Positions 3,063 to 16,633 of a stretch of 21,605 nt of DNA are shown piece after piece. The notes beneath the pieces are model-generated. The model saw nothing but the letters and a program-made list of their open reading frames with translations, did no database searches and was not told the origin of the DNA. The position numbers and the translations under genes are program-made. Source of the DNA: a virus. Lineage: Duplodnaviria; Heunggongvirae; Uroviricota; Caudoviricetes. The stretch's first letter is position 1. Each line of letters opens with the position of its first letter. Location: IMG/VR virus record IMGVR_UViG_2681813318_000014; one strand, given 5' to 3'.

Positions 3063-3129
3063 GTGCTACGTGAAATCTTCTGAACAGATATACCCACCAA
3101 AAATTATTTTTTACGTAGCTCACGCTTAA
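3063..3129. repeat. about 65-bp conserved element, copy A, immediately upstream of the tape-measure-like gene
   Basis: CTACGTGAA...ATACCCAC-CAAAAATTATTTTTTACGTAGCTCACGCTTAA; a 32-bp core is identical to copy B at 5326-5392; contains the internal inverted repeat GCTACGT...ACGTAGC about 41 bp apart. Confidence 0.6.
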
Positions 3130-3147
3130 AGAGGTGAAAAAATATGA

Positions 3148-5316
3148 ATGGCACAATTTAAAGTTGATGATTTTCTGATTGAGTTAAGTTTTAACTCTCA
3201 GAAAGTTTTAAAAGGCTTGGAAAAAGCCGAGAAACAAACGATGCAGGTAGCATCACGAATTGAGAAGCGATTGAATAAAGCTTTTAAAGTTAACCCTACG
3301 CCTTTAAATGATTCTCTCAAGGTCATGGAAAGAAATGTCGATAAAACTGTTTCCAAGATTGAGCAGCGTCTTAAAAACACTAGAGTGTTTAAGATTAAAA
3401 CGGAAATTGAGGATACTTTAAAGCCACTTAGACAACCAAGACAGCCACGAATTAGCGGCAACAGAGCAATCACAGCAGCTTACTCAGCGAATATGAGCAA
3501 GCTAAAAGGCTTTGACCCTATTTTGCAGAAATACATCAAATCTCAGTTTTACGGGCTATCTGCTAAAGCCGGGTCAATGGATAATTCAAAATTCAATGAG
3601 AAGCTGGCTCAGCTAAATGCTTCAGTCAGAGAAGCAATTGCTAAAGCTAAAGGTCATACATCCACCAGCATTAATAATACAAGCGACGCATTTAATAATC
3701 TTGCAAGCAATGCAATTAAGTTATCTGGTGCATTTTACTCTGTGATGGGTGCTCTTAACGCTTACAAGGCCATTATGAATGCAGGTCTTAAACGAGATTC
3801 CGCACAGAGAGCCGCTAAGTTTGTACTTGGTGATAAAGCATCTGAGGCTGAAACATTTATCAGGGGACTGGCTGACAAGACAGGTCTTAATATCTCTGAA
3901 GGGCTATCAAGCTACGCTAAGTTTGCAGCAGGTGCTCAGGGTTCTATGTCACAGGAACAGACACAGGAGCTATTTGGTAATGCAACGGCTATGAGTCGCT
4001 TAATGGGGCTTAGTAATGATGAGCTAAACGGCATTTTGAAAGCTTTTGAGCAGATGGCTTCTAAGGGCAAGATTCAGGCTGAAGAATTACGTGGGCAGTT
4101 AGGTGACCGTATGGCTGGTGCATTTAAGCTATTCGCTGAAGCACTGGGTATGACTGCTACAGAGCTTGATAAAGCGATGAAAGACGGGAAGATTTTAAGT
4201 AGTGATACTCTCCCTAAAGTCGCTAAACAGATGGGCTTGATGATTGATAAAGCGGGTGGCTGGGCTGAAGTCGCTAAGAGCACCCAGACAGCTTTAGGTA
4301 AGTTAGCAAACAACTGGGATGATACGATGGTGAAAATCTTCTCAGGTTCACAGGATGAGCTAAACGGCTTCTTATCCAGCCTGAGTAACCTGCTTAGTGA
4401 AATGGGGATGAGTTCTTCTATCGCTGGTGATGCTATCGGTGGGCTTATCGACATGCTTAAAGCTGGTGTAGATGATATTCGCGTATTCAATAACACCATT
4501 GAAGGCTGGATTTTACAGGTTAAAAAGTTCTATTACAGCCTTGATGACACTAAACGAAAACTACTTGATGAAGTCGGTGATGGTTTTATCAATTTTGTCA
4601 AAGGTCTTGCTATAGCGTTATCTGCAAAGACGCTATTCAGTGCCACTACAGGGGTTATGAACCTGACAAGAGCAATCACAACGTTAGGTACAAGAGCTAA
4701 TCAGGTGGCTGGTCAGGTAGCTACTGGTAAAGGTGGTGAAAAACTGAAAGGTGTAGCTGGTGGTGTAGGTAGTGCTCTTGCAATTGGTTATGCTGATGAC
4801 GGTTATGAAACAGCGTTAGCATTAGCTTCAATGATTCCACAAATCAGAGGTGTCACCCTTGGTTTATATGCATTGAAGAAAGCACTGGATTTTATGAATC
4901 AGGAAGTAGTCAAAAACGCTAACATGCATCCATCTGGGGTAGGTGTGGGTAGTGACTTTAATCCTGTGTATTCTGGTGACCCTAATAAACCGAATATGAT
5001 TAATGAAGGGTGGATTAAAATTTTTAGTTCAATGGGTGAATTGTTTAACAATGCCACAATGAATATTGCAAGATTCAATCATCCAGAATTAAACAACATT
5101 AAGCAAGAAGCATCACTAACCAGCGCAGATATTCAAAGTCTGAGGGATGAAATCTCTGCTTTAAGTAAGCGTATTCAGGAGCCTGTGAAAGTTTCACTTG
5201 GTGGTGAAGTTGCCATTAAACCAGATGAAACATCGTTTATGACCTTTAGCGGTAATATTTACGACCAATACGCAGAAGCTACGCTATTAAGTTCATCATT
5301 TCCAGAAGATGATTGA
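3148..5316 (+). CDS. tape-measure-domain protein (phage tail length tape measure-like), 722 aa
   Basis: Segment LKAFEQMASKGKIQAEELRGQLGDRMAGAFKLFAEALGMTATELDKAMKDGKILSSDTLP matches the conserved tape-measure motif as recalled from memory; central Gly/Ala-rich hydrophobic segments; GAGGTG RBS upstream. Confidence 0.7.
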   Translation: MAQFKVDDFLIELSFNSQKVLKGLEKAEKQTMQVASRIEKRLNKAFKVNPTPLNDSLKVMERNVDKTVSKIEQRLKNTRVFKIKTEIEDTLKPLRQPRQPRISGNRAITAAYSANMSKLKGFDPILQKYIKSQFYGLSAKAGSMDNSKFNEKLAQLNASVREAIAKAKGHTSTSINNTSDAFNNLASNAIKLSGAFYSVMGALNAYKAIMNAGLKRDSAQRAAKFVLGDKASEAETFIRGLADKTGLNISEGLSSYAKFAAGAQGSMSQEQTQELFGNATAMSRLMGLSNDELNGILKAFEQMASKGKIQAEELRGQLGDRMAGAFKLFAEALGMTATELDKAMKDGKILSSDTLPKVAKQMGLMIDKAGGWAEVAKSTQTALGKLANNWDDTMVKIFSGSQDELNGFLSSLSNLLSEMGMSSSIAGDAIGGLIDMLKAGVDDIRVFNNTIEGWILQVKKFYYSLDDTKRKLLDEVGDGFINFVKGLAIALSAKTLFSATTGVMNLTRAITTLGTRANQVAGQVATGKGGEKLKGVAGGVGSALAIGYADDGYETALALASMIPQIRGVTLGLYALKKALDFMNQEVVKNANMHPSGVGVGSDFNPVYSGDPNKPNMINEGWIKIFSSMGELFNNATMNIARFNHPELNNIKQEASLTSADIQSLRDEISALSKRIQEPVKVSLGGEVAIKPDETSFMTFSGNIYDQYAEATLLSSSFPEDD

Positions 5317-5325
5317 TTTAACGGT

Positions 5326-5392
5326 GTTCTACGTGAATAAAGCAAAGTTAATACCCACACCAAAAATTATTTTTTACGTAGCTCACGCTTAA
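5326..5392. repeat. about 65-bp conserved element, copy B, immediately upstream of the 5473 gene
   Basis: CTACGTGAA...ATACCCACACCAAAAATTATTTTTTACGTAGCTCACGCTTAA; same core and same internal inverted repeat as copy A. Confidence 0.6.
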
Positions 5393-5472
5393 CAGAGAAA
5401 ACACTTATATATCAAAGGCTTGGTTAAAAATGATTAAAATACACTAAGCCTTTGAAATCAAAGGAGAATTTA

Positions 5473-6261
5473 ATGATTTTTAGCAATCAAATCCGCTACA
5501 GTGGCAAAGATGGCATCTATTTCCACTTAAGAGATAATGTAGATGCCTTCTTAACTTTATCAGCTACTGAAAACATGGAATTTGACAGCCCTATGCAGGT
5601 CACTACACAAAACATGCAATCAGGGCAAACCGTCACAGATAATGTGCAAAGAGCACCCAGAACAATCACTATTAGTGGTGTCGTTGTAGTTGGCTATGAA
5701 GGGAGCTTATTATTAACTCGTCAGGGCCAGTTAGTAGAAAACTTCATCGACACTCTTGAAAGCTGGAGAGACCAGAAACAAATTATTTCAGTGATTTGTA
5801 AAGATGGTATCAAGATTGATGACTCAATTATTACCAACTTTAAAGCCTCTAAAGATGTTACTATCTCTAACGGTCTTCGTATCCAGCTAACTTTTCAGGA
5901 AATTAACTTCAAAGCCGTTGTGGGTCAAACTGATATTTCAGCAGCAACTGGAAAGACCGCTACTACAAATGATGGTGGTGTGACCAGTAAGAAGAATGCA
6001 GGTAACGTGACCACTGAACGCAATAACGCGCCTATGCTATCGTGCAAAGAGTTAATGAGTATTAACGATGTATCCGGTTACGCTCCAGCTATCAGAAATG
6101 ATATTCTCGATGCTCAGATTAAATGTAATAAGGCTTGGAAGCTGGATTATTCAGACTTAACAGAAGCTGAAAAAACCAACGTCACCAATGCTAACAGTAA
6201 CGCTGGTCGAGTAGCTTCAAAGCTTAAAAAGTACTCAGTGAACCCTCACAAAAAATACTAA
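5473..6261 (+). CDS. hypothetical beta-rich protein (262 aa), possibly a distal tail component
   Basis: ATG 5473 with AAGGAG 6 nt upstream (the track start at 5452 is a TTG with no RBS); position directly after a tape-measure gene; functional call is by position only. Confidence 0.5.
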
Positions 6262-6303
6262 ATCTCTACTACATCAACATCTATTAAACCCCTCTCAGTG
6301 ACT

Positions 6304-7782
6304 TCAGAAAGCGACTGTATAGCCTCTGTAACGTTGTCTGAGGGGTTTTCTGTTATTGGTAGGGTGGATTGACTTACTATTGTGAAAAGTTACTTTACAG
6401 CGACGTTTAGCAGTATTTAAAACGACCTCTTTAACAGCACTTTTGATTATCAGTTGTGCTTCAATCCTTCCCGCCTTTGTAGTCAAGTCACAATCAGACA
6501 AACACCCCACATCAATAGATTTAAGGCGTTGTGTCTCCTTCTCGATATCCGCATCAACCTGTGATAGCTCACCTTTTAACTGTTTTAGTTTGCTGGTAAT
6601 AGCGGACAAGTCTTCAATTTCAAGTGATAGCTGTACCAGCTTTTCAATATTGCTTGAGATGTGTTCACGGTGTAGCCTCAACATATCTATGGTATTCGTC
6701 ATATCGCTATCAAATCGGTCAAGACGAGATAGCAGGGTAAGTAATGTACCATCGGTTTGCTTACGTGACAGCCCTTTAGCACTACAACGGTTTTCATTAC
6801 GAAGAGGACAACGATAAATCCCGCTTCTTGTATCGCTAAAGCCTGTGATAATCAAAGCATGACCACATTCAGAACAACGGATAACACCTTTAAAGAGATT
6901 CACACTCAATGGTTTATCTGAAACAGGTTTTCTTCCATAACGAGAATATGATAGTTGCTGGACTTTGTAGAAATCAGTCTCAGGGATGATAGAGGGGAAA
7001 TAACCAGTTATCTCCTCACAGCCTTTAGGTGTGAAGTAACCAATTACAGAGCGATTCTTCAGAAGGTCTTGCACTGAGGTTTGACCAAACTTACCCGCTT
7101 TATATTGGTTAAGTGTCTGGTGACCTTCATCATTAAGAGTCCTGACAATCTCCCAGATAGACTTACCCTCTAACCGTAGCTGAAAGCACCTCTTCACAGT
7201 CTCCACTTTCTCAGGTATCACAGAGAAGCTTTTACGGTCATCATTCAGCCTTAACCATGCAGGACAACGCTTAGAAATCTTGATACCTTCAGAGATGAGT
7301 TCTTTTTTACGGTTCCATGCAGCTTGTATACGCTCAGACTTCCTCAAACTCTCCTCATGCGACCGCTGCATTATCAGAATGCTTTTAATCAGAGCTAACG
7401 GGTCTTTAAGAGATTCCCTTGTGTAATGTTCACCATCGGACAAGGTGACTACATCTACACCAGAGCGAAGAATGTTTCGTAATAGCTCACTTGCTCGGTC
7501 TACGTTCTGGCGTGACAAACGGTCAAGAGATTCTATCAAGAGCGTATCACCAGCTTTAACAAGCCCTTTCTCGATAGCGGTTAAAAAGTCACCTAAGCCA
7601 CCTTTCAAGTGCTTACCAGTAAACCCGCTAACGCCTAAATCACGGAAGGATAAATCTTGGTCAAGGTAGTACTCAGGATGAGCCTTAAGCCAGTCATTAA
7701 CCATCTTAGACTGTCTGCGTAGTGAATCACCTCGGGATTGCTTCTCAGATGAAAACCTGATGTAAGAAATGGCACGTTTCAT
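6304..7782 (-). CDS. large serine recombinase (integrase/resolvase family), 492 aa
   Basis: N-terminal resolvase-type catalytic region with Ser in AISYIRFSSEKQ; long recombinase domain; Cys-rich zinc-ribbon-like segment CSECGH...CP; C-terminal coiled coil; GGTGAGGTG RBS; at the edge of the AT-rich block next to chromosomal DNA. Confidence 0.85.
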   Translation of the reverse strand: MKRAISYIRFSSEKQSRGDSLRRQSKMVNDWLKAHPEYYLDQDLSFRDLGVSGFTGKHLKGGLGDFLTAIEKGLVKAGDTLLIESLDRLSRQNVDRASELLRNILRSGVDVVTLSDGEHYTRESLKDPLALIKSILIMQRSHEESLRKSERIQAAWNRKKELISEGIKISKRCPAWLRLNDDRKSFSVIPEKVETVKRCFQLRLEGKSIWEIVRTLNDEGHQTLNQYKAGKFGQTSVQDLLKNRSVIGYFTPKGCEEITGYFPSIIPETDFYKVQQLSYSRYGRKPVSDKPLSVNLFKGVIRCSECGHALIITGFSDTRSGIYRCPLRNENRCSAKGLSRKQTDGTLLTLLSRLDRFDSDMTNTIDMLRLHREHISSNIEKLVQLSLEIEDLSAITSKLKQLKGELSQVDADIEKETQRLKSIDVGCLSDCDLTTKAGRIEAQLIIKSAVKEVVLNTAKRRCKVTFHNSKSIHPTNNRKPLRQRYRGYTVAF

Positions 7783-7832
7783 TGTTCACCTCACCTAATA
7801 ACCCCTAGATTGTATCGCTTTAGGTGGTGTAT

Positions 7833-8234
7833 TTAAACGTGTCTAATAAAAATCACCCGATTAACGCCGCGCTGATGTAAACCGCGATTAAGCGTTTGTT
7901 CCTCTTCCCCTTTGGCGAAAAACTGTGGATGGCGGACTTCCACACCATAATTAAATTCGCCAGGGAGAGAATCGAGAAAATGCCAAAGCGCAGGCAGCTC
8001 CCGTGGGCCGAATGTGGCAGGCAGTTGCAGCCAGTATTGCCCAATGCGCGGAGCCAACGGTGACATGCGGGTCAAAAATTCAGTCACTAAATCATCGCAA
8101 TGTCGTAATGCTGCCTGATGCGAAATGGTCGCCGGAAACTTAAAACAGAAGCGGAAGTCATCTGTGGTCTGTTCACGCCAGCGCAGGACAACCTCGGGTT
8201 TCGGCAGGGCGTAAAGCGTGGTGTTGCCCTCCAC
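7833..8234 (-). pseudogene. yecE: fragment of a chromosomal DUF72-family gene (consistent with yecE), missing both ends
   Basis: GC-richer composition than both flanks; sequence CVEGNTTLYALPKPEVVLRWREQTTDDFRFCFKFPATISH fits the conserved DUF72 N-proximal pattern as recalled; no native start (frame open into the integrase 3' end); only about 133 codons versus roughly 270 expected. Confidence 0.5.
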
Positions 8235-8260: not shown

Positions 8261-9574
8261 TTAACTTACTGATTTTAATAAGCCTCTGGTGTCACTTTGG
8301 TGACTATGGGGCATCATTGGGACATAATCTGTCAGCTTCTGATTCAGCATTGCGATCTGTTCTGCATTGCTGTCAGTCATCCATGCTCCGTATACATTGA
8401 ATACCATCTGGGCACTTGCATGGCCCATCTGGCTGGCAATGAAGCTTGGGTTTGCTCCGGCAGATAATGACCAGCACGCATAAGTGTGTCGTGACTGGTA
8501 TGCCTTTCGATGCCTGATCCCTGCACGCTTAATGGCTGTTTCCCATGAGTCACCTACAGAATCGACTTTGTAGACAAAACCTACCTGTTCGCTTTTTCTA
8601 ACCACTTGAGGGTTAAACACGAAAGTACATTCATGGTTCACTGAACGTCCATATTCACGTAGTTGCACCTTGATGTTGTACTGCTTACCCAGTCTTGTCA
8701 TTTCAGCCTGATTTTTCAGGACACTGATAGCGGGCTGGATAAGGTGCACAACCCTGTTTGTGCTTGCTTCAGTTTTCGGTAGAGTGAACTCACCAAGTTT
8801 CGTATAATTGCGCCTGATGGTAATTGTTCCTGCCTTCAGATCGATATCTTCCCAGGCCAGGGAGACCAGTTCACCGTGACGCATTCCTGTGTACACAGCC
8901 AATGACCACAGGTTTTTCGTCTGCTGATGTCGGCAAGCATCTATCAGGCGAATAAATTCGTCACGAGTTAGCGGATCTGGCTCTGCCCTGGCTCTTTTAA
9001 GAGGCTTAATTCCCTGGAAGGGATTTGCTTCTAAGTAACCGTGATCTGCAGCAAACTGAAACATTCCAGCGATTGTCGTCATGTAATAATTTACAGTAAC
9101 GACGCTCCGTCCTTTTGCTGCTGCTTTGTTTTTCGTTGAATTCTGATACCCGGTAAGCAAATCTTTCCTGATATACAGCAATTCCTCTTTGGTTACCGAT
9201 GACACCAGTCTACTGCCTCCAATTTTCGGAACCATCGTTCTTGCAACGGATTCATAGCGATTGAATGCATTTGCAGAGATTTCCATTCGTTTCAGATCCA
9301 GCCACTTTTCTTCAAGTTCCTTCACCGTAATTTCTTTTTTACTTACCCCAAAAGCCTGAAGGTTGGGGGAGTCAGGGAACTGTGCAGCATAATCAAAGCT
9401 TCCTGTGCGGATGGCAAAACATACTGATGTCCGCAGTTCCCCGGCGATCTTCCTGTTCTTGGCAGTGTCAGGGACACCAAGATTTTCCCTGACACGTTTA
9501 CCGTTAAAATTAAACCAGATGCGTAATGTGCCGCCGTGGTTTTCGACGCCTGTTGGATATTTGACTTTATCCAT
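8261..9574 (-). CDS. int: phage tyrosine integrase (437 aa)
   Basis: C-terminal catalytic-region residues consistent with a tyrosine recombinase (AYQSRHTYA..., ...VYGAWM); N-terminal arm-type domain; GGAGGT RBS; immediately downstream of an excisionase-like gene on the same strand. Confidence 0.85.
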   Translation of the reverse strand: MDKVKYPTGVENHGGTLRIWFNFNGKRVRENLGVPDTAKNRKIAGELRTSVCFAIRTGSFDYAAQFPDSPNLQAFGVSKKEITVKELEEKWLDLKRMEISANAFNRYESVARTMVPKIGGSRLVSSVTKEELLYIRKDLLTGYQNSTKNKAAAKGRSVVTVNYYMTTIAGMFQFAADHGYLEANPFQGIKPLKRARAEPDPLTRDEFIRLIDACRHQQTKNLWSLAVYTGMRHGELVSLAWEDIDLKAGTITIRRNYTKLGEFTLPKTEASTNRVVHLIQPAISVLKNQAEMTRLGKQYNIKVQLREYGRSVNHECTFVFNPQVVRKSEQVGFVYKVDSVGDSWETAIKRAGIRHRKAYQSRHTYACWSLSAGANPSFIASQMGHASAQMVFNVYGAWMTDSNAEQIAMLNQKLTDYVPMMPHSHQSDTRGLLKSVS

Positions 9575-9629: not shown

Positions 9630-9866
9630 TCACCTGGGTTGTTTGTTTTTCATTGAGGCGACCCAGGCATCTATTGCTTTTCTGTTATACATACATTCAC
9701 TGGAAGGCTTTGGATTACCGTCTGGTGATACGTGAATATACTCTCTTCCAACCATCCAGCATTCTTTCCGGGCCCGAAGAATTGTGCCTGGTTTGAGCCC
9801 GGTAATTGCGATAAGAACGCTTTCACAAACCCATTCATTGGGAGCCAGTTGAATCACATTGCCCAT
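9630..9866 (-). CDS. xis: excisionase-like protein (78 aa)
   Basis: Small basic protein directly upstream of int on the same strand; TGAGG RBS; resembles the lambdoid-prophage excisionase-like family from memory. Confidence 0.55.
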   Translation of the reverse strand: MGNVIQLAPNEWVCESVLIAITGLKPGTILRARKECWMVGREYIHVSPDGNPKPSSECMYNRKAIDAWVASMKNKQPR

Positions 9867-10024: not shown

Positions 10025-10267
10025 TTACTTCCTTTTTATGGCTCGTAATTTTTTCAGGTGCTTTTCCTGCTCAGTGTCCGCGAGAATTTTGCGGTACTCC
10101 TGGTGGTCAATATGTTCGAACAGGCAGTTTAACTCACCAATGCGTACCCGCCCGGATCGTCCGTCCATCCGTCGAAAGAACACTGAGTGCTCAGTGATGC
10201 GAGTAATCACCACGGGGTATCCGGCTCTGTCCGTGTATATCTGACCGCGTTGAATCAAAGCGAACAT
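10025..10267 (-). CDS. hypothetical phage protein (80 aa)
   Basis: ATG 10267; sits in the tightly packed early-left operon. Confidence 0.5.
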   Translation of the reverse strand: MFALIQRGQIYTDRAGYPVVITRITEHSVFFRRMDGRSGRVRIGELNCLFEHIDHQEYRKILADTEQEKHLKKLRAIKRK

Positions 10268-10271
10268 GTGG

Positions 10272-10355
10272 TTATCCCCAGCGGCAAATCGAATACACCA
10301 TCAGCGTCACCGCCATCGCAATTCCTACCGTTGTTAATGCTTCAGGCCAGGTCAT
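10272..10355 (-). CDS. possible 27-aa hydrophobic peptide ([27 protein letters not shown])
   Basis: ATG overlaps upstream stop (ATGA at 10352-10355); GGAGG RBS 10 nt upstream; single transmembrane-like segment. Confidence 0.3.
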
Positions 10356-10696
10356 CGTAAAATATCCTCCACGCTTATCAGTCCGTTCCGCTCCAGATAA
10401 CTCATCGCCTTATCCGGTAATTTGCAGTCTGGCTTCGCTTTCCTCAGTTGCCAGGTTAACTGCTTTACCAGCATGGTTAACTCATCGACCAGACGCTGAT
10501 ATCCCACTGGTTTGTATTCATGCAATTTACCGGCTGGCTCTGCTGCCAGCGATACCAGTGCGATTTCCAGAACAGCAATATCCATCTTATATGTGCGGAT
10601 GATGTCATGGTCGATTGTACCCGGTATGCACAGTCTCTGTGCTTCAATAGTCTCCTCTGCGTGAGCTATTAACTGCTCTCTGGTAAAAGTCGTCAT
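10352..10696 (-). CDS. hypothetical phage protein (114 aa), paralog of the next gene
   Basis: ATG 10696 in ATGA overlap with upstream stop; AAGGGG RBS; shares the [10 protein letters not shown] motif and a 29-bp DNA repeat with 10693..10878. Confidence 0.55.
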
Positions 10697-10878
10697 GCCG
10701 TAGCCCCTTCTTGATATTTTTCAAACCAGAACACAACCGGCTCTGCTTCCAGCGATACCAGTGCAATTCGTGCCAGTTCTTCCGCTTCTTCTGCTGGCAG
10801 TACAACGTTGCTACCCGGTCCGTATGTTTCGCGCCACTGCTTGATTGTCAGCAGTCGCCCTTTGGTAATAGTGATCAT
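10693..10878 (-). CDS. hypothetical phage protein (61 aa), paralog of 10352..10696
   Basis: ATG 10878 in ATGA overlap; AAGGAA RBS; motif [10 protein letters not shown]. Confidence 0.5.
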
Positions 10879-11390
10879 GCCGCGTTTCCTTCTTTCTTAT
10901 TAACAATCACACCGTCATATATTTCATTAAGGTGCCCTCTCAACTCCATGCGCCTTAATGCAGATAACATGTAATCGCATTCAACCTGCTTATTCCCAGT
11001 AAATGGCTTATCGTCAGGATTACCCCAACAGCAATTACCCCTGGGCCATCCATGTACTTTCCGTACTCTTCCGTTAACAACGTGAAGTAATCCCCAGCCG
11101 GGAGGTAAATCCTCAACTGAAATAATTTCCGGCTCACTAATAAAGAATCGCCAGTCGCCCATGCCAAGTGAGGGATTTTTACGGAAACGCTTTTTTCTAT
11201 CTGCCAACAAGTCAGCACGAGAACACTTCGCCTCTATCAGGCATGATGCTGAATTTCTGAATCCCATAGCATCTGGCTGTTCTCCGGTACTGGTTACAGC
11301 AACAAAGCGGTCATGAAAGCAAACCTTGAACCCGTTGCGCTTAAGGAACTTGTACGCAATCTGACAGAGTTCGTGGTGTGTTAACGCCAT
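10875..11390 (-). CDS. putative PD-(D/E)XK nuclease, MmcB-like (171 aa)
   Basis: Start moved to ATG 11390 (AAGGAG 6 nt upstream; track start 11423 is TTG); motif DAMGF...CLIEAKCSRADLLAD...DWRFFISEP fits the D...E-x-K nuclease core of the MmcB-like family as recalled. Confidence 0.55.
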   Translation of the reverse strand: MALTHHELCQIAYKFLKRNGFKVCFHDRFVAVTSTGEQPDAMGFRNSASCLIEAKCSRADLLADRKKRFRKNPSLGMGDWRFFISEPEIISVEDLPPGWGLLHVVNGRVRKVHGWPRGNCCWGNPDDKPFTGNKQVECDYMLSALRRMELRGHLNEIYDGVIVNKKEGNAA

Positions 11391-11391
11391 A

Positions 11392-11877
11392 TCACTCTCC
11401 TTTGATGCGAATGCCTGTTGCAATGCTGTTTATGATGCTGTCAGTGCATGGGGTAGAAAGCTGGGCATCTCCAGCAATTTTCATGACCTCAACATCTGCA
11501 TATCGAATACCGAGGTGTATCAGACCGGCTATGCCTGACTTAAGCCGAGCATTTTCCATAAATAGAACTTTTGCCCGCTGTTTTTCTGCTTCAAGCTCAA
11601 CGCGCAGCTTCCCTACCGTTAGCGCAATATCCTCGTTCTCCTGATCGCGGCTTTTGATGTATTGCAGGTTTCTTTCCCGTTCATCCAGCAGTGCCAGCAC
11701 GGTTTCTGGTCCGGTCAGAAATTTGAAGGCGTTGAGCGCATCAATATCCACACCGTAATCTTTAAGTTCCTGTTCACTTAACAAGTCATCATCAGCTGGC
11801 AACATTAACAGGCGTTCCATTGCTGGAATTGCACGTTCCGCCACCTCACGCAGTGCCTGGTAATTAATTTCGCTCAC
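11392..11877 (-). CDS. Ea22-like early protein (161 aa)
   Basis: GTG start at 11877 with AAGGAGG RBS 6 nt upstream; N-terminus MSEINYQALREVAE is characteristic of the Ea22-like family in lambdoid phages; GTGA overlap with upstream stop. Confidence 0.55.
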   Translation of the reverse strand: MSEINYQALREVAERAIPAMERLLMLPADDDLLSEQELKDYGVDIDALNAFKFLTGPETVLALLDERERNLQYIKSRDQENEDIALTVGKLRVELEAEKQRAKVLFMENARLKSGIAGLIHLGIRYADVEVMKIAGDAQLSTPCTDSIINSIATGIRIKGE

Positions 11878-12380
11878 TGGTTGCCTCCTTTGCGAAGCTG
11901 GGCAGCAAAGTCAACTAACCACTCAGTCATTTCAACCTTCCCTACCAGGTCTGAACCAGGGTACATACAGCAATCACTCTGCGCCGCTTTGAAATCCTTA
12001 TACTCATATTCTTGGGCCACCAGATTTTTTGCAGCTTCTATAGCAGCGTCCACCCCCTGCGCCCGGACTTCAGCCAGGAAAGCATCAGTGGTTGGCGTTT
12101 CAGGTATCTGTCTCCTCATCCGTTCTATTGCATGATTGAACCCGAAGTCTTCCGCGAGAGATACGTCATCCATATTGTCATTGTCATCCTCAATATCCCG
12201 TGATTCTGGAATTGCAGACTTTATTCCCGCATTCTCCGCTGCCAGCGCCGCGCACTTGGCCTCAAGAGCGGCAACCACTTCCTGATGGTCTTTGTACTTA
12301 ACGTATGAGCCGGAGATGTCATCACCTTCGGTGTTTAGCCATGCGTCATTGCAATTCACTGCGTAGGTTCTGATGCTCAT
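11874..12380 (-). CDS. acidic hypothetical phage protein with coiled-coil segment (168 aa from the internal ATG)
   Basis: ATG 12380 with GGGAGAG RBS, in ATGA overlap with the stop of 12377..12559; the track's longer 208-aa version begins at an upstream ATG without an RBS. Confidence 0.5.
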   Translation of the reverse strand: MSIRTYAVNCNDAWLNTEGDDISGSYVKYKDHQEVVAALEAKCAALAAENAGIKSAIPESRDIEDDNDNMDDVSLAEDFGFNHAIERMRRQIPETPTTDAFLAEVRAQGVDAAIEAAKNLVAQEYEYKDFKAAQSDCCMYPGSDLVGKVEMTEWLVDFAAQLRKGGNQ

Positions 12381-12559
12381 GTTGATGCTCTCCCGCCCCT
12401 GACAGACGCCAGGCCAGTCAATAAAGTATCCGCAATGCCTACCCTCAGACGTGCGCGCAGGATAAATGCCGTTATGACCCGGCAAATATATGCTACCCAT
12501 TCATCTTGCGTTGCCTGTTCCGCCGCCTCGCGCAGTGCCTGATAGTCAATCTTGCTCAC
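12377..12559 (-). CDS. short Ea22-like N-terminal-module protein (60 aa), possibly a recombination remnant
   Basis: GTG 12559 with AAGGAGG RBS; the first about 22 residues (MSKIDYQALREAAEQATQDEWVA) match the Ea22-like N-terminus, the rest is low-complexity; its 5' region is a DNA paralog of the 11877 gene start. Confidence 0.35.
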   Translation of the reverse strand: MSKIDYQALREAAEQATQDEWVAYICRVITAFILRARLRVGIADTLLTGLASVRGGRAST

Positions 12560-15537: not shown

Positions 15538-16227
15538 CTAACCAAATCTGTTTATGTTGAATGGTACTGATGAGATCACTTTAGACTGGATATAAAGCAG
15601 AGCTAACCCCTCTTTTTCGATGCTCCATGGTTGATAATTGGGGTTATCAGATAACACCATGATTTTGCTTCCAATTTTTTGAAGCCTTTTCACGTAGCAT
15701 TCTCCATCAAAACAAAATGCATAAATACCATCGCCATCAAAATAAGTTACTGTCTTATCAAGAAAAAGAAGGTCGCCAGGTGAGATTGTGGGAGCCATAC
15801 TGTCTCCTCTGGCGTTACCTATTTCTATATTTTTGAATGCCCGATTTCCAACAAGACGTCGGGCATATTCAGGATCAAGTTCTATTGAGCGCACTACATC
15901 TATCAAGTCACCACGGACATGAGTTCCATCACCGCAACTAAACTCAACATCAAGGACATTAAATACGACGCTATCTGTTCTTGTCTGGTGTTTCTCTTGC
16001 GAGGAAAAGGTTGGTGAGGAGTCTTCACCTAAGAACCAGGATTGTGGATAACCGCTAATCTCTGATAAATGCGCGAGCTTATCACTCCGTGGAAATGTTT
16101 TTCCTGTTGTCCAGTACTGCACTGATTGCGCACTCACACCTAACTTGCGGGCCAGTTGAGCCTGAGTCCATCCTTTTGCTTTCAGCATCGCGGCTATTCG
16201 ATTTTCCGTGTTTTTGACGTTCTTCAT
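15538..16227 (-). CDS. cI: prophage repressor, cI-like (HTH plus LexA-type S24 peptidase domain), 229 aa
   Basis: N-terminal HTH (WTQAQLARKLGVSAQSVQYW); C-terminal autocleavage domain with Ser in GDSMAPT and Lys in VKRL; divergent from a cro-like gene; start moved to ATG 16227 (track start is TTG). Confidence 0.85.
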   Translation of the reverse strand: MKNVKNTENRIAAMLKAKGWTQAQLARKLGVSAQSVQYWTTGKTFPRSDKLAHLSEISGYPQSWFLGEDSSPTFSSQEKHQTRTDSVVFNVLDVEFSCGDGTHVRGDLIDVVRSIELDPEYARRLVGNRAFKNIEIGNARGDSMAPTISPGDLLFLDKTVTYFDGDGIYAFCFDGECYVKRLQKIGSKIMVLSDNPNYQPWSIEKEGLALLYIQSKVISSVPFNINRFG

Positions 16228-16233
16228 GACCAA

Positions 16234-16360: not shown

Positions 16361-16633
16361 ATGGAAGGAAATGATTACGACAAACTTCGTGCATTAATTG
16401 CGCAAAATGCCATAGCGCGAAATCTTGGTGTGACGCCGCAAGCGGTGAATCAGTGGTTTTCAAAAAACACAATTCCTGCTCGTTTCGTTTTACGCGTATG
16501 TGAAGTAGTTGCATGGAAGGTCACGCCACATGGCTTAAGGCCAGATCTTTATCCTCACCCTGAAGATGGAATTCCTGATTCGTTACGCAAAATTTCAAAT
16601 CCAAGCTTAGCGCACACAGAGGACGAGAAGTGA
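16361..16633 (+). CDS. cro: Cro-like repressor, YdaS-type HTH (90 aa)
   Basis: Divergent from cI; segment NLGVTPQAVNQWFSKNTIPARFVLRVCEVVAWKVTPHGLRPDLYP fits the YdaS/Cro-type HTH family as recalled. Confidence 0.7.
   Translation: MEGNDYDKLRALIAQNAIARNLGVTPQAVNQWFSKNTIPARFVLRVCEVVAWKVTPHGLRPDLYPHPEDGIPDSLRKISNPSLAHTEDEK

Follow-up and report, generated by a model that had tools for sequence, protein, structure and literature searches.

The stretch of DNA analysed here (21,605 nucleotides, hereafter the window) represents a lambdoid prophage of E. coli, and over the stretch that concerns us here several chromosomes and phage PhiR49_2 match it at 100% identity. Pfam matches outline its control region, with a gene for a CI-type repressor (S24 peptidase and HTH; 15538-16233, minus strand) and a Cro-like gene at 16361 on the plus strand, while leftwards, all on the minus strand, are found Ead/Ea22-like genes (11392-12500), the excisionase gene xis (9630-9866) and the tyrosine integrase gene int (8261-9574). 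The short open reading frame (sORF) under study falls in the interval from the Ead/Ea22 genes to xis-int and shares its strand with the leftward transcript of the CI side, which agrees with the early-left operon position assigned to it in an earlier note on this DNA. By its predicted gene content, the region is in λ terms the variable part of the exo–xis region. Within it, the interval 10744-11423 (minus strand) holds a 182-aa ORF (10875-11423) that has no Pfam match and a 61-aa ORF (10693-10878), and RefSeq gives there nothing but pseudogenes, frameshifted or partial (a fragment resembling the N-terminus of EaA/DUF551); this stretch of the operon seems to be in part decayed or wrongly annotated. 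To the left of the integrase, a fragment of a DUF72 (yecE-like) gene is found at 7833-8234 and, beyond it, a large serine recombinase (6304-7782, minus strand), a Dit-like gene (5452-6261) and a tape measure gene (3148-5316); this segment (3148-8234) seems to stem from another prophage, which would share the chromosomal site but use an integrase of a different type.

The sORF occupies positions 10272..10355 on the minus strand, being read from 10355 to 10272, and consists of 27 codons, the first of them an ATG, and a TAA stop; the 27-aa product has a predicted single-pass transmembrane helix at residues ~6-24, flanked by W3/P4 and Y21/R25/W26. The gene upstream (10352..10696, minus strand; 114 aa, no Pfam domain, PHROG 660, annotated as hypothetical protein WP_000206826.1) is a member of the mosaic Ea/EaA-type exo-xis gene set and provides both the Shine-Dalgarno sequence of the sORF and its coupling stop. 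Indeed, the ATG of the sORF and the TGA of this gene overlap in an ATGA (10352..10355, minus strand; tcat on the plus strand), a signature of termination-reinitiation coupling that had already been pointed out and is plainly seen in the sequence. A GGAGG (10366..10370, minus strand) is located inside the last codons of the same gene, 10 nt before the ATG: the ribosome-binding site is therefore present as the earlier note had claimed, but its spacing, which had been described as good, is only acceptable and not ideal, many relatives having a spacer of 7 nt. On the other side, the ATG of a DUF4222 gene (RgdR family; 10025..10267, minus strand; 80 aa, PF13973 with E=8e-14) follows 4 nt past the sORF stop, and the 3' end of the sORF (..TGGGGATAA) likely carries the ribosome-binding purines of this gene. 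RgdR, a member of the DUF4222 family, is encoded by a prophage of EHEC O157:H7, where it activates type III secretion (PMC10877973); the copy in the window has RGQ at residues 7-9, not the RGD tripeptide.

Open frames of this size are common in the region: 76 ORFs of at least 20 aa overlap the 4 kb around the sORF, and for this reason the sORF alone is not beyond chance. It is the comparative evidence, and not the ORF itself, that strongly argues for lifting it above this background. We have collected loci from annotated phages, one-genome-per-species contigs and IMG/VR, a sample whose sORF diversity is confined to Enterobacteriaceae phages, and obtained 99 copies that correspond to 34 distinct DNA alleles and to 15–16 peptide variants, all of 27–28 aa. 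All 34 alleles keep the sORF frame free of internal stops, whereas both of the remaining sense frames are interrupted in 34/34, with dN/dS of about 1.5-1.6. The minimum numbers of substitution events at codon positions 1, 2 and 3 are 15, 12 and 35, respectively. Along a minimum-spanning tree of the alleles, the 69.5 synonymous and 46.5 non-synonymous changes, set against 19.7 synonymous and 58.3 non-synonymous sites, yield dN/dS≈0.23, the synonymous excess being highly significant (binomial p=1.3e-15). In fact, one identical peptide, that of the window, is encoded by at least 16 different DNA alleles, and the replacements that do occur are conservative (A/V, I/V, F/L, A/T), with a mean BLOSUM62 score of +0.41 and 89% of them scoring 0 or higher.

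The translation signals are kept to a comparable extent. Among 119 non-redundant loci the start is always ATG and the stop always falls at the same codon (114 TAA and 5 TGA), and GGAGG precedes the start in 113, with spacers of 7 nt (66 loci), 10 nt (46) or 5 nt (1), so that a 7- or 10-nt spacer is found in 112/119. The stop of the upstream gene overlaps the sORF start by 4 nt, as ATGA, in ~90 of the 99 loci. The earlier note had proposed conservation of the frame in related prophages as the test of its suggestion, and frame, start and stop are kept across diverged alleles and in differing contexts. Clearly, these results make it very probable that the sORF is a real protein-coding gene under purifying selection on its amino-acid sequence.

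The same alleles allow two other accounts of the site to be weighed. One would place the real gene on the opposite (plus) strand, in an antisense open frame such as the one at 10187-10360 in the window (57 aa). One antisense frame is indeed free of stops in 34/34 alleles, with an apparent dN/dS of 0.22, and two records annotate ORFs across the site on that strand, gp73 of POCJ13 (L100, 1506-1634) and ORF C38 of Stx2-II (L262, 201-950). However, this frame shares its wobble positions with the sense frame, and its low dN/dS is for that reason a by-product; its replacements are non-conservative (mean BLOSUM62 of -0.45), neither a start nor a stop is conserved in it, and the sequences on both sides differ with each neighbouring module. 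Moreover, the 57-aa ORF of the window is cut by stops in BP-4795-type alleles, and such a gene would be transcribed against the pL operon, from a promoter of which no trace was found. On these secondary grounds we consider the chances of an antisense gene to be negligible, gp73 and C38 being probably mis-calls, given the sense-strand evidence. The second account denies that there is a gene at all and regards the 84 bp as a linker that is kept as a hot spot of homologous recombination between phage modules, with an incidental ORF. Shared junction sequences are known in lambdoid phages, and the breakpoints of the mosaic do match the sORF ends, the segment retaining 75-100% nucleotide identity between otherwise unrelated flanks. 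Yet a linker predicts uniform nucleotide constraint and not codon periodicity, and what is observed are mostly third-position substitutions, synonymous far above expectation, conserved start, stop and Shine-Dalgarno sequences, and rare indels, one of which is an in-frame two-codon duplication. A mere linker is thus highly improbable, even if the two roles are not mutually exclusive: a gene and a recombination junction can coexist in the sORF.

A less biased view of conservation is obtained when the loci are fetched through the neighbouring genes rather than through the sORF. In loci anchored on DUF4222, the sORF is intact and ends exactly 4 nt before the DUF4222 ATG in 79/80, the exception being due to an extra G in a G-run. 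In loci anchored on the 114-aa gene it is intact in 72/78, counting the in-frame two-codon duplication and one stop-loss extension; the six disrupted copies, which stand beside an intact 114-aa gene, represent 4 independent alleles (frameshifts and one nonsense). The sense copy of Shigella phage POCJ13 carries W3→stop. In the reciprocal sample the neighbour genes are intact in 38/38 and 9/9 loci, a difference from the sORF that is not statistically compelling. The occasional loss suggests that the gene is dispensable in resident prophages. In one locus (L028, 2740-3084) the upstream 114-aa gene has suffered a deletion by which its N-terminal ~80 residues are joined in frame to the sORF, resulting in a natural chimera, a 114-aa fusion with a C-terminal transmembrane segment.

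The surroundings of the sORF vary from one phage to another. When aligned with the window, BP-4795, JLK-2012 and phi467 become similar to it at ~10356, and ArgO145 ceases to be so at 10272, these positions corresponding to the two ends of the sORF. At least five unrelated types of upstream partner are found, nearly all with the ATGA overlap, including the gene of the window (ending in ..SVEDILR*), DUF551 proteins (..PEPPQEVNQ*), p77 of 933W (..IEQKVNQ*), a phi467 protein, an Av-05 protein and others. The main allele class of the sORF is found behind three of these types (..SVEDILR*, DUF551 and 933W-p77), with or without DUF4222, and DUF4222 in turn is paired with three sORF allele classes. Downstream, the sORF is followed by DUF4222, by hok/sok, by a toxin–antitoxin pair (ArgO145) or, in 61/99 loci, by no same-strand ORF of at least 35 aa starting within 150 nt. 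When loci L102-L181 are compared with the window, the DUF4222 proteins are 99-100% identical, yet the sORF peptides (MSWPDAIVTLG.. versus the window type) are only ~56% identical, which implies that a recombination junction is located no more than a few bases from the sORF stop. These comparisons show the sORF to be a module of 84 bp that re-assorts on its own, and they speak against an obligatory link to the gene on either side.

With respect to what is found past the sORF, hok/sok (Rfam RF01794, sok scoring 107–118 bits) is located at ~40-210 nt in 8/10 sampled relatives that lack DUF4222 (L008, 1626-1800; L028, L038, L059 and L066, ~3126-3301; L011, L045 and L072, ~3290-3464), two sok copies being present in L045. 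In ArgO145 (L005) a convergent toxin/antitoxin pair takes its place, together with matches to the C4 and IsrK RNAs.

The variety of neighbours also bears on whether the peptide matters at all, as translation of the sORF could simply pass ribosomes on to DUF4222 or prevent Rho-dependent polarity, with a functionless product. The tight coupling on both sides, by the ATGA upstream and by the 4 nt and the purine-rich likely Shine-Dalgarno sequence before the DUF4222 ATG, is what would be expected from such a relay, and this geometry recurs in the 79 of 80 DUF4222 loci. Nevertheless, the sORF is kept in the 61 of 99 loci that have no such same-strand ORF (at least 35 aa, within 150 nt) downstream, and its length is fixed at 27-28 codons. 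Its amino-acid sequence and hydrophobicity are conserved, as seen from the low dN/dS and the conservative replacements, and a pure relay would not need this conservation. We consider it quite improbable that the sORF serves as a relay only.

The properties of the peptide are in agreement with a location in the membrane. The best 19-residue Kyte-Doolittle mean of the window peptide is 1.91, over residues 6-24, above the usual transmembrane threshold of ~1.6, and four variants from different classes score 1.9-2.4 over the same residues; the single transmembrane-like segment that the earlier note had recognised is thus well founded. Seven residues are invariant (W3, P4, A6, G11, A15, S22 and R25), and the hydrophobic core is bordered on its N-terminal side by W3-P4 together with an acidic E/D5, and on its C-terminal side by Y21, R25 and W26. 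G11, A15 and S22 are spaced i, i+4, i+11, like small-residue packing motifs; however, the helical moment of this small-residue face is not significant, as 6560 of 10000 shuffles reach it, and the idea of helix packing is for that reason to be taken as a hint. Altogether, the sORF product is probably a membrane peptide.

Searches for relatives of the peptide returned little. No match was obtained in Pfam (two alleles, E<=0.1), NCBIfam or PADLOC, nor at E≤10 in a profile search of PDB sequences. A weak partial match to PHROG 4612, a phage protein family with a 57-position profile, membership of which would tell nothing as to function, aligns residues 1-23 to positions 33-54 with E=0.0011 for the window allele and E=0.019 for the commonest sORF allele, and four other alleles have no match. 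No description of the sORF was found in the literature, searched with the peptide string in full text and with DUF4222, DUF551 and exo–xis plus transmembrane. The peptide is also absent from the supplements of a ribosome-profiling study of EHEC Sakai and of a catalogue of Enterobacteriaceae microproteins, lists that may omit sequences; in uninduced lysogens the pL genes are silent, which may explain its absence from the profiling supplements. The membrane microprotein candidates predicted in Enterobacteriaceae amount to tens of thousands (PMC11188072). The sORF peptide is an uncharacterised new family within the phage and bacterial membrane microproteins.

In all annotated records inspected, namely RefSeq/PGAP E. 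coli chromosomes, phages and IncY plasmids, the sORF interval (84–87 nt) is empty. The phages concerned are PhiR49_2, with a 100% identical copy, BP-4795, 933W, Stx2-II, ArgO145, JLK-2012, phi467, Av-05 and vB_EcoS-666R9. A few GenBank genomes do call the peptide or close variants (ETI78407.1, ASL58468.1 and AOM45384.1), under the names "hypothetical protein" or "bacteriophage protein". The description of the frame as unannotated is therefore correct for the inspected RefSeq/PGAP, phage and plasmid records but does not hold in an absolute sense, and the sORF is neglected by annotation rather than strictly unknown. The default minimum gene length of common callers such as Prodigal is 90 nt, and the sORF measures 84–87 nt including its stop. 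A fusion of the sORF to 121-aa Shigella "DUF551" proteins, which protein clustering had suggested, was rejected: those proteins do not contain the peptide, the link being an artefact that arose through partial read-through entries.

The sORF is nonetheless widespread. It is present in 1,632 of 5,426 complete E. coli genomes (about 30%), at 3,108 places, with up to 7 per genome and 163 on plasmids, as well as in 93 phage records, which include 933W, VT1/VT2-Sakai, Stx2-I/II, Min27, BP-4795, YYZ-2008 and Av-05, in 181 plasmid records and in at least 498 IMG/VR contigs. The plasmids are mostly non-mobilizable replicons of ~92–110 kb from Escherichia, Salmonella and Klebsiella, and the two that were inspected are IncY, i.e. 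P1-type phage-plasmids. Besides Av-05, which belongs to the Vequintavirinae, three further phage records of 77–134 kb contain it; the Vequintavirinae are a virulent group, and the Av-05 copy suggests a role during lytic growth. A one-genome-per-species scan with a strict N-terminal pattern, which distant relatives may escape, retrieved Escherichia, Shigella and two tiny contigs only. The latter (369 and 431 nt; L013 and L014) come from assemblies of Acinetobacter idrijaensis and Xanthomonas pisi, and a 96%-identical copy of the E. coli type is found in Actinobacillus phage vB_Apl-pPE4 (PP818812.1, 13011-13189); the copies in these three genera are probably due to contamination or host mis-assignment. 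A search with a peptide HMM found no sORF in phage λ (19–36 kb) or in the five lambdoid cryptic prophages Qin, Rac, CPS-53, DLP12 and e14 of K-12 MG1655, the best E value being 0.12, compared to 3e-21 for the window as positive control.

No promoter- or terminator-like site adjoins the sORF in a promoter/terminator scan, and no sigma-70-like promoter is found nearby on either strand. Likewise, on the minus strand between 9500 and 11500 there is no promoter-like site upstream of the sORF, as judged from a consensus scan only, which weak promoters could escape. No Rfam match was obtained in the window between 8000 and 13000 at E<=1, and the RNA fold at the sORF is ordinary (z=+1.37).

These results are relevant to the function put forward in the earlier note, that of a host-killing or exclusion peptide, which would depolarise or permeabilise the inner membrane in the manner of a type I toxin or block a superinfecting phage. 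With 27 aa and a single hydrophobic helix, the peptide does resemble the toxins of the Ibs, ShoB, DinQ and TisB type; its gene lies among accessory genes, at a place where hok/sok and further toxin–antitoxin modules are found directly downstream in relatives, and the occasional disrupted copies could mean counter-selection of a harmful product. However, the defining features of type I systems, i.e. an own promoter, an antisense RNA, an Rfam match and a special mRNA fold, are not seen at the sORF, and neither HOK_GEF nor another Pfam toxin family nor PADLOC returns a match. The true host-killing locus of the relatives, hok/sok, is often the next gene downstream, a separate module. Many type I toxins have a charged tail, which the peptide does not have, and up to 7 copies per genome are tolerated; a copy is also present in Av-05, a member of the virulent Vequintavirinae. 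Finally, since lysogens repress the long operon within which the sORF is translationally coupled, exclusion expressed from the lysogen would need an unrecognised promoter. We therefore consider host killing or exclusion unlikely.

The comparison with known systems leads in the same direction. Hok/Gef, Ibs, ShoB, DinQ, TisB and Ldr are, like the sORF peptide, very small and hydrophobic, and hok genes share its accessory region in related phages. Unlike Hok/Gef, however, the peptide does not match the HOK_GEF profile (~50 aa with a conserved Cys pattern; two alleles, E<=0.1), and the sORF has no overlapping antisense Sok or structured leader, although the same Rfam model detects sok in the relatives. 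Similarly, and unlike Ldr, TisB, Ibs, ShoB and DinQ, it has no toxin-family match, dedicated promoter, antisense RNA or regulatory mRNA fold, and it differs from type I toxins in general in that it would be co-translated with an upstream gene and is tolerated in multiple copies per genome. SieB, Cor and the gp15-type exclusion proteins are expressed from the lysogen, in contrast with the sORF, for which the consensus scan found no promoter-like site.

A closer analogy is offered by KdpF, AcrZ, MgtS, MgtR, CydX and PmrR, small single-pass regulators of the enterobacterial inner membrane that act by binding a larger membrane protein. Like them, the sORF peptide does not exceed 50 aa and has a single hydrophobic helix, very short tails, and aromatic and basic residues at the membrane interface, and standard annotation has missed it. 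It differs from them in having no sequence similarity (no Pfam or NCBIfam match), and the sORF is phage-borne, absent from K-12 and ATGA-coupled in a phage early operon. Such binding of a larger membrane protein is also what we favour as the mode of action of the peptide.

In respect to its genetic compartment, the sORF belongs with the exo-xis genes of λ and Stx phages (orf60a, orf61, orf63, orf73, ea22 and ea8.5): it is found in the same pL-driven segment, where it directly follows Ea22/DUF551-type genes. It is, however, not among the exo-xis genes described so far and is absent from λ, and by the Kyte-Doolittle criterion its product would be membrane-embedded; the word "transmembrane" is absent from the NMR paper on Ea22. 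The exo-xis genes are small and dispensable for growth, and they modulate the lysis-lysogeny decision and induction (PMC3824215, PMC10834534).

Taken together, these observations are best accounted for by a membrane microprotein that is translated in coupling with the gene before it and has an early, accessory function, a reading to which we assign a probability of roughly 60%. Its message would be the long leftward early (pL, exo–xis) transcript, and since the sORF is coupled within this transcript and has no promoter of its own, the peptide would appear minutes after infection or induction, and its gene would stay silent in the repressed lysogen. Ribosomes ending the preceding Ea-type gene would reinitiate at the ATGA, aided by the embedded GGAGG. 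The peptide would then insert into the inner membrane, its short acidic N-terminal end (MTWPE) facing outwards and the basic C-terminal end (RWG) facing inwards, the topology that follows from the positive-inside rule, and would act inside the bilayer by helix-helix contact, either with itself or with a host membrane protein. That its action depends on a specific helix-helix partner, and not on general damage to the membrane, is a tentative proposal, to which we give less than even odds. Its role would be that of an accessory host-modulating factor and not of an autonomous toxin; early, lysogen-silent expression fits an accessory role like that of other exo–xis genes, and is harder to reconcile with exclusion expressed from the lysogen or with a toxin–antitoxin system working on its own.

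It is conceivable, albeit speculative, that the sORF family binds a specific host inner-membrane protein early and in this way contributes to the exo-xis effects on lysis-lysogeny, on induction and on Shiga-toxin output. If this were true, the plasmids and deletions used earlier to study the exo-xis region of Stx phages could have carried, or eliminated, a gene that went unnoticed. The proposal is easily tested, as both a natural knock-out (W3→stop) and intact alleles exist. The sORF also provides a clean example of a gene-sized mosaic module of only 84 bp. The existence of such a gene is in itself unsurprising; its prevalence, its presence in the medically important Stx phages and its exo–xis location make annotation and a knock-out worthwhile. 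Indeed, the sORF ranks with the commoner accessory phage genes of E. coli and is found in the main Shiga-toxin phages, and its absence from λ and K-12 would explain why classical genetics and the small-protein screens in K-12 have missed it.
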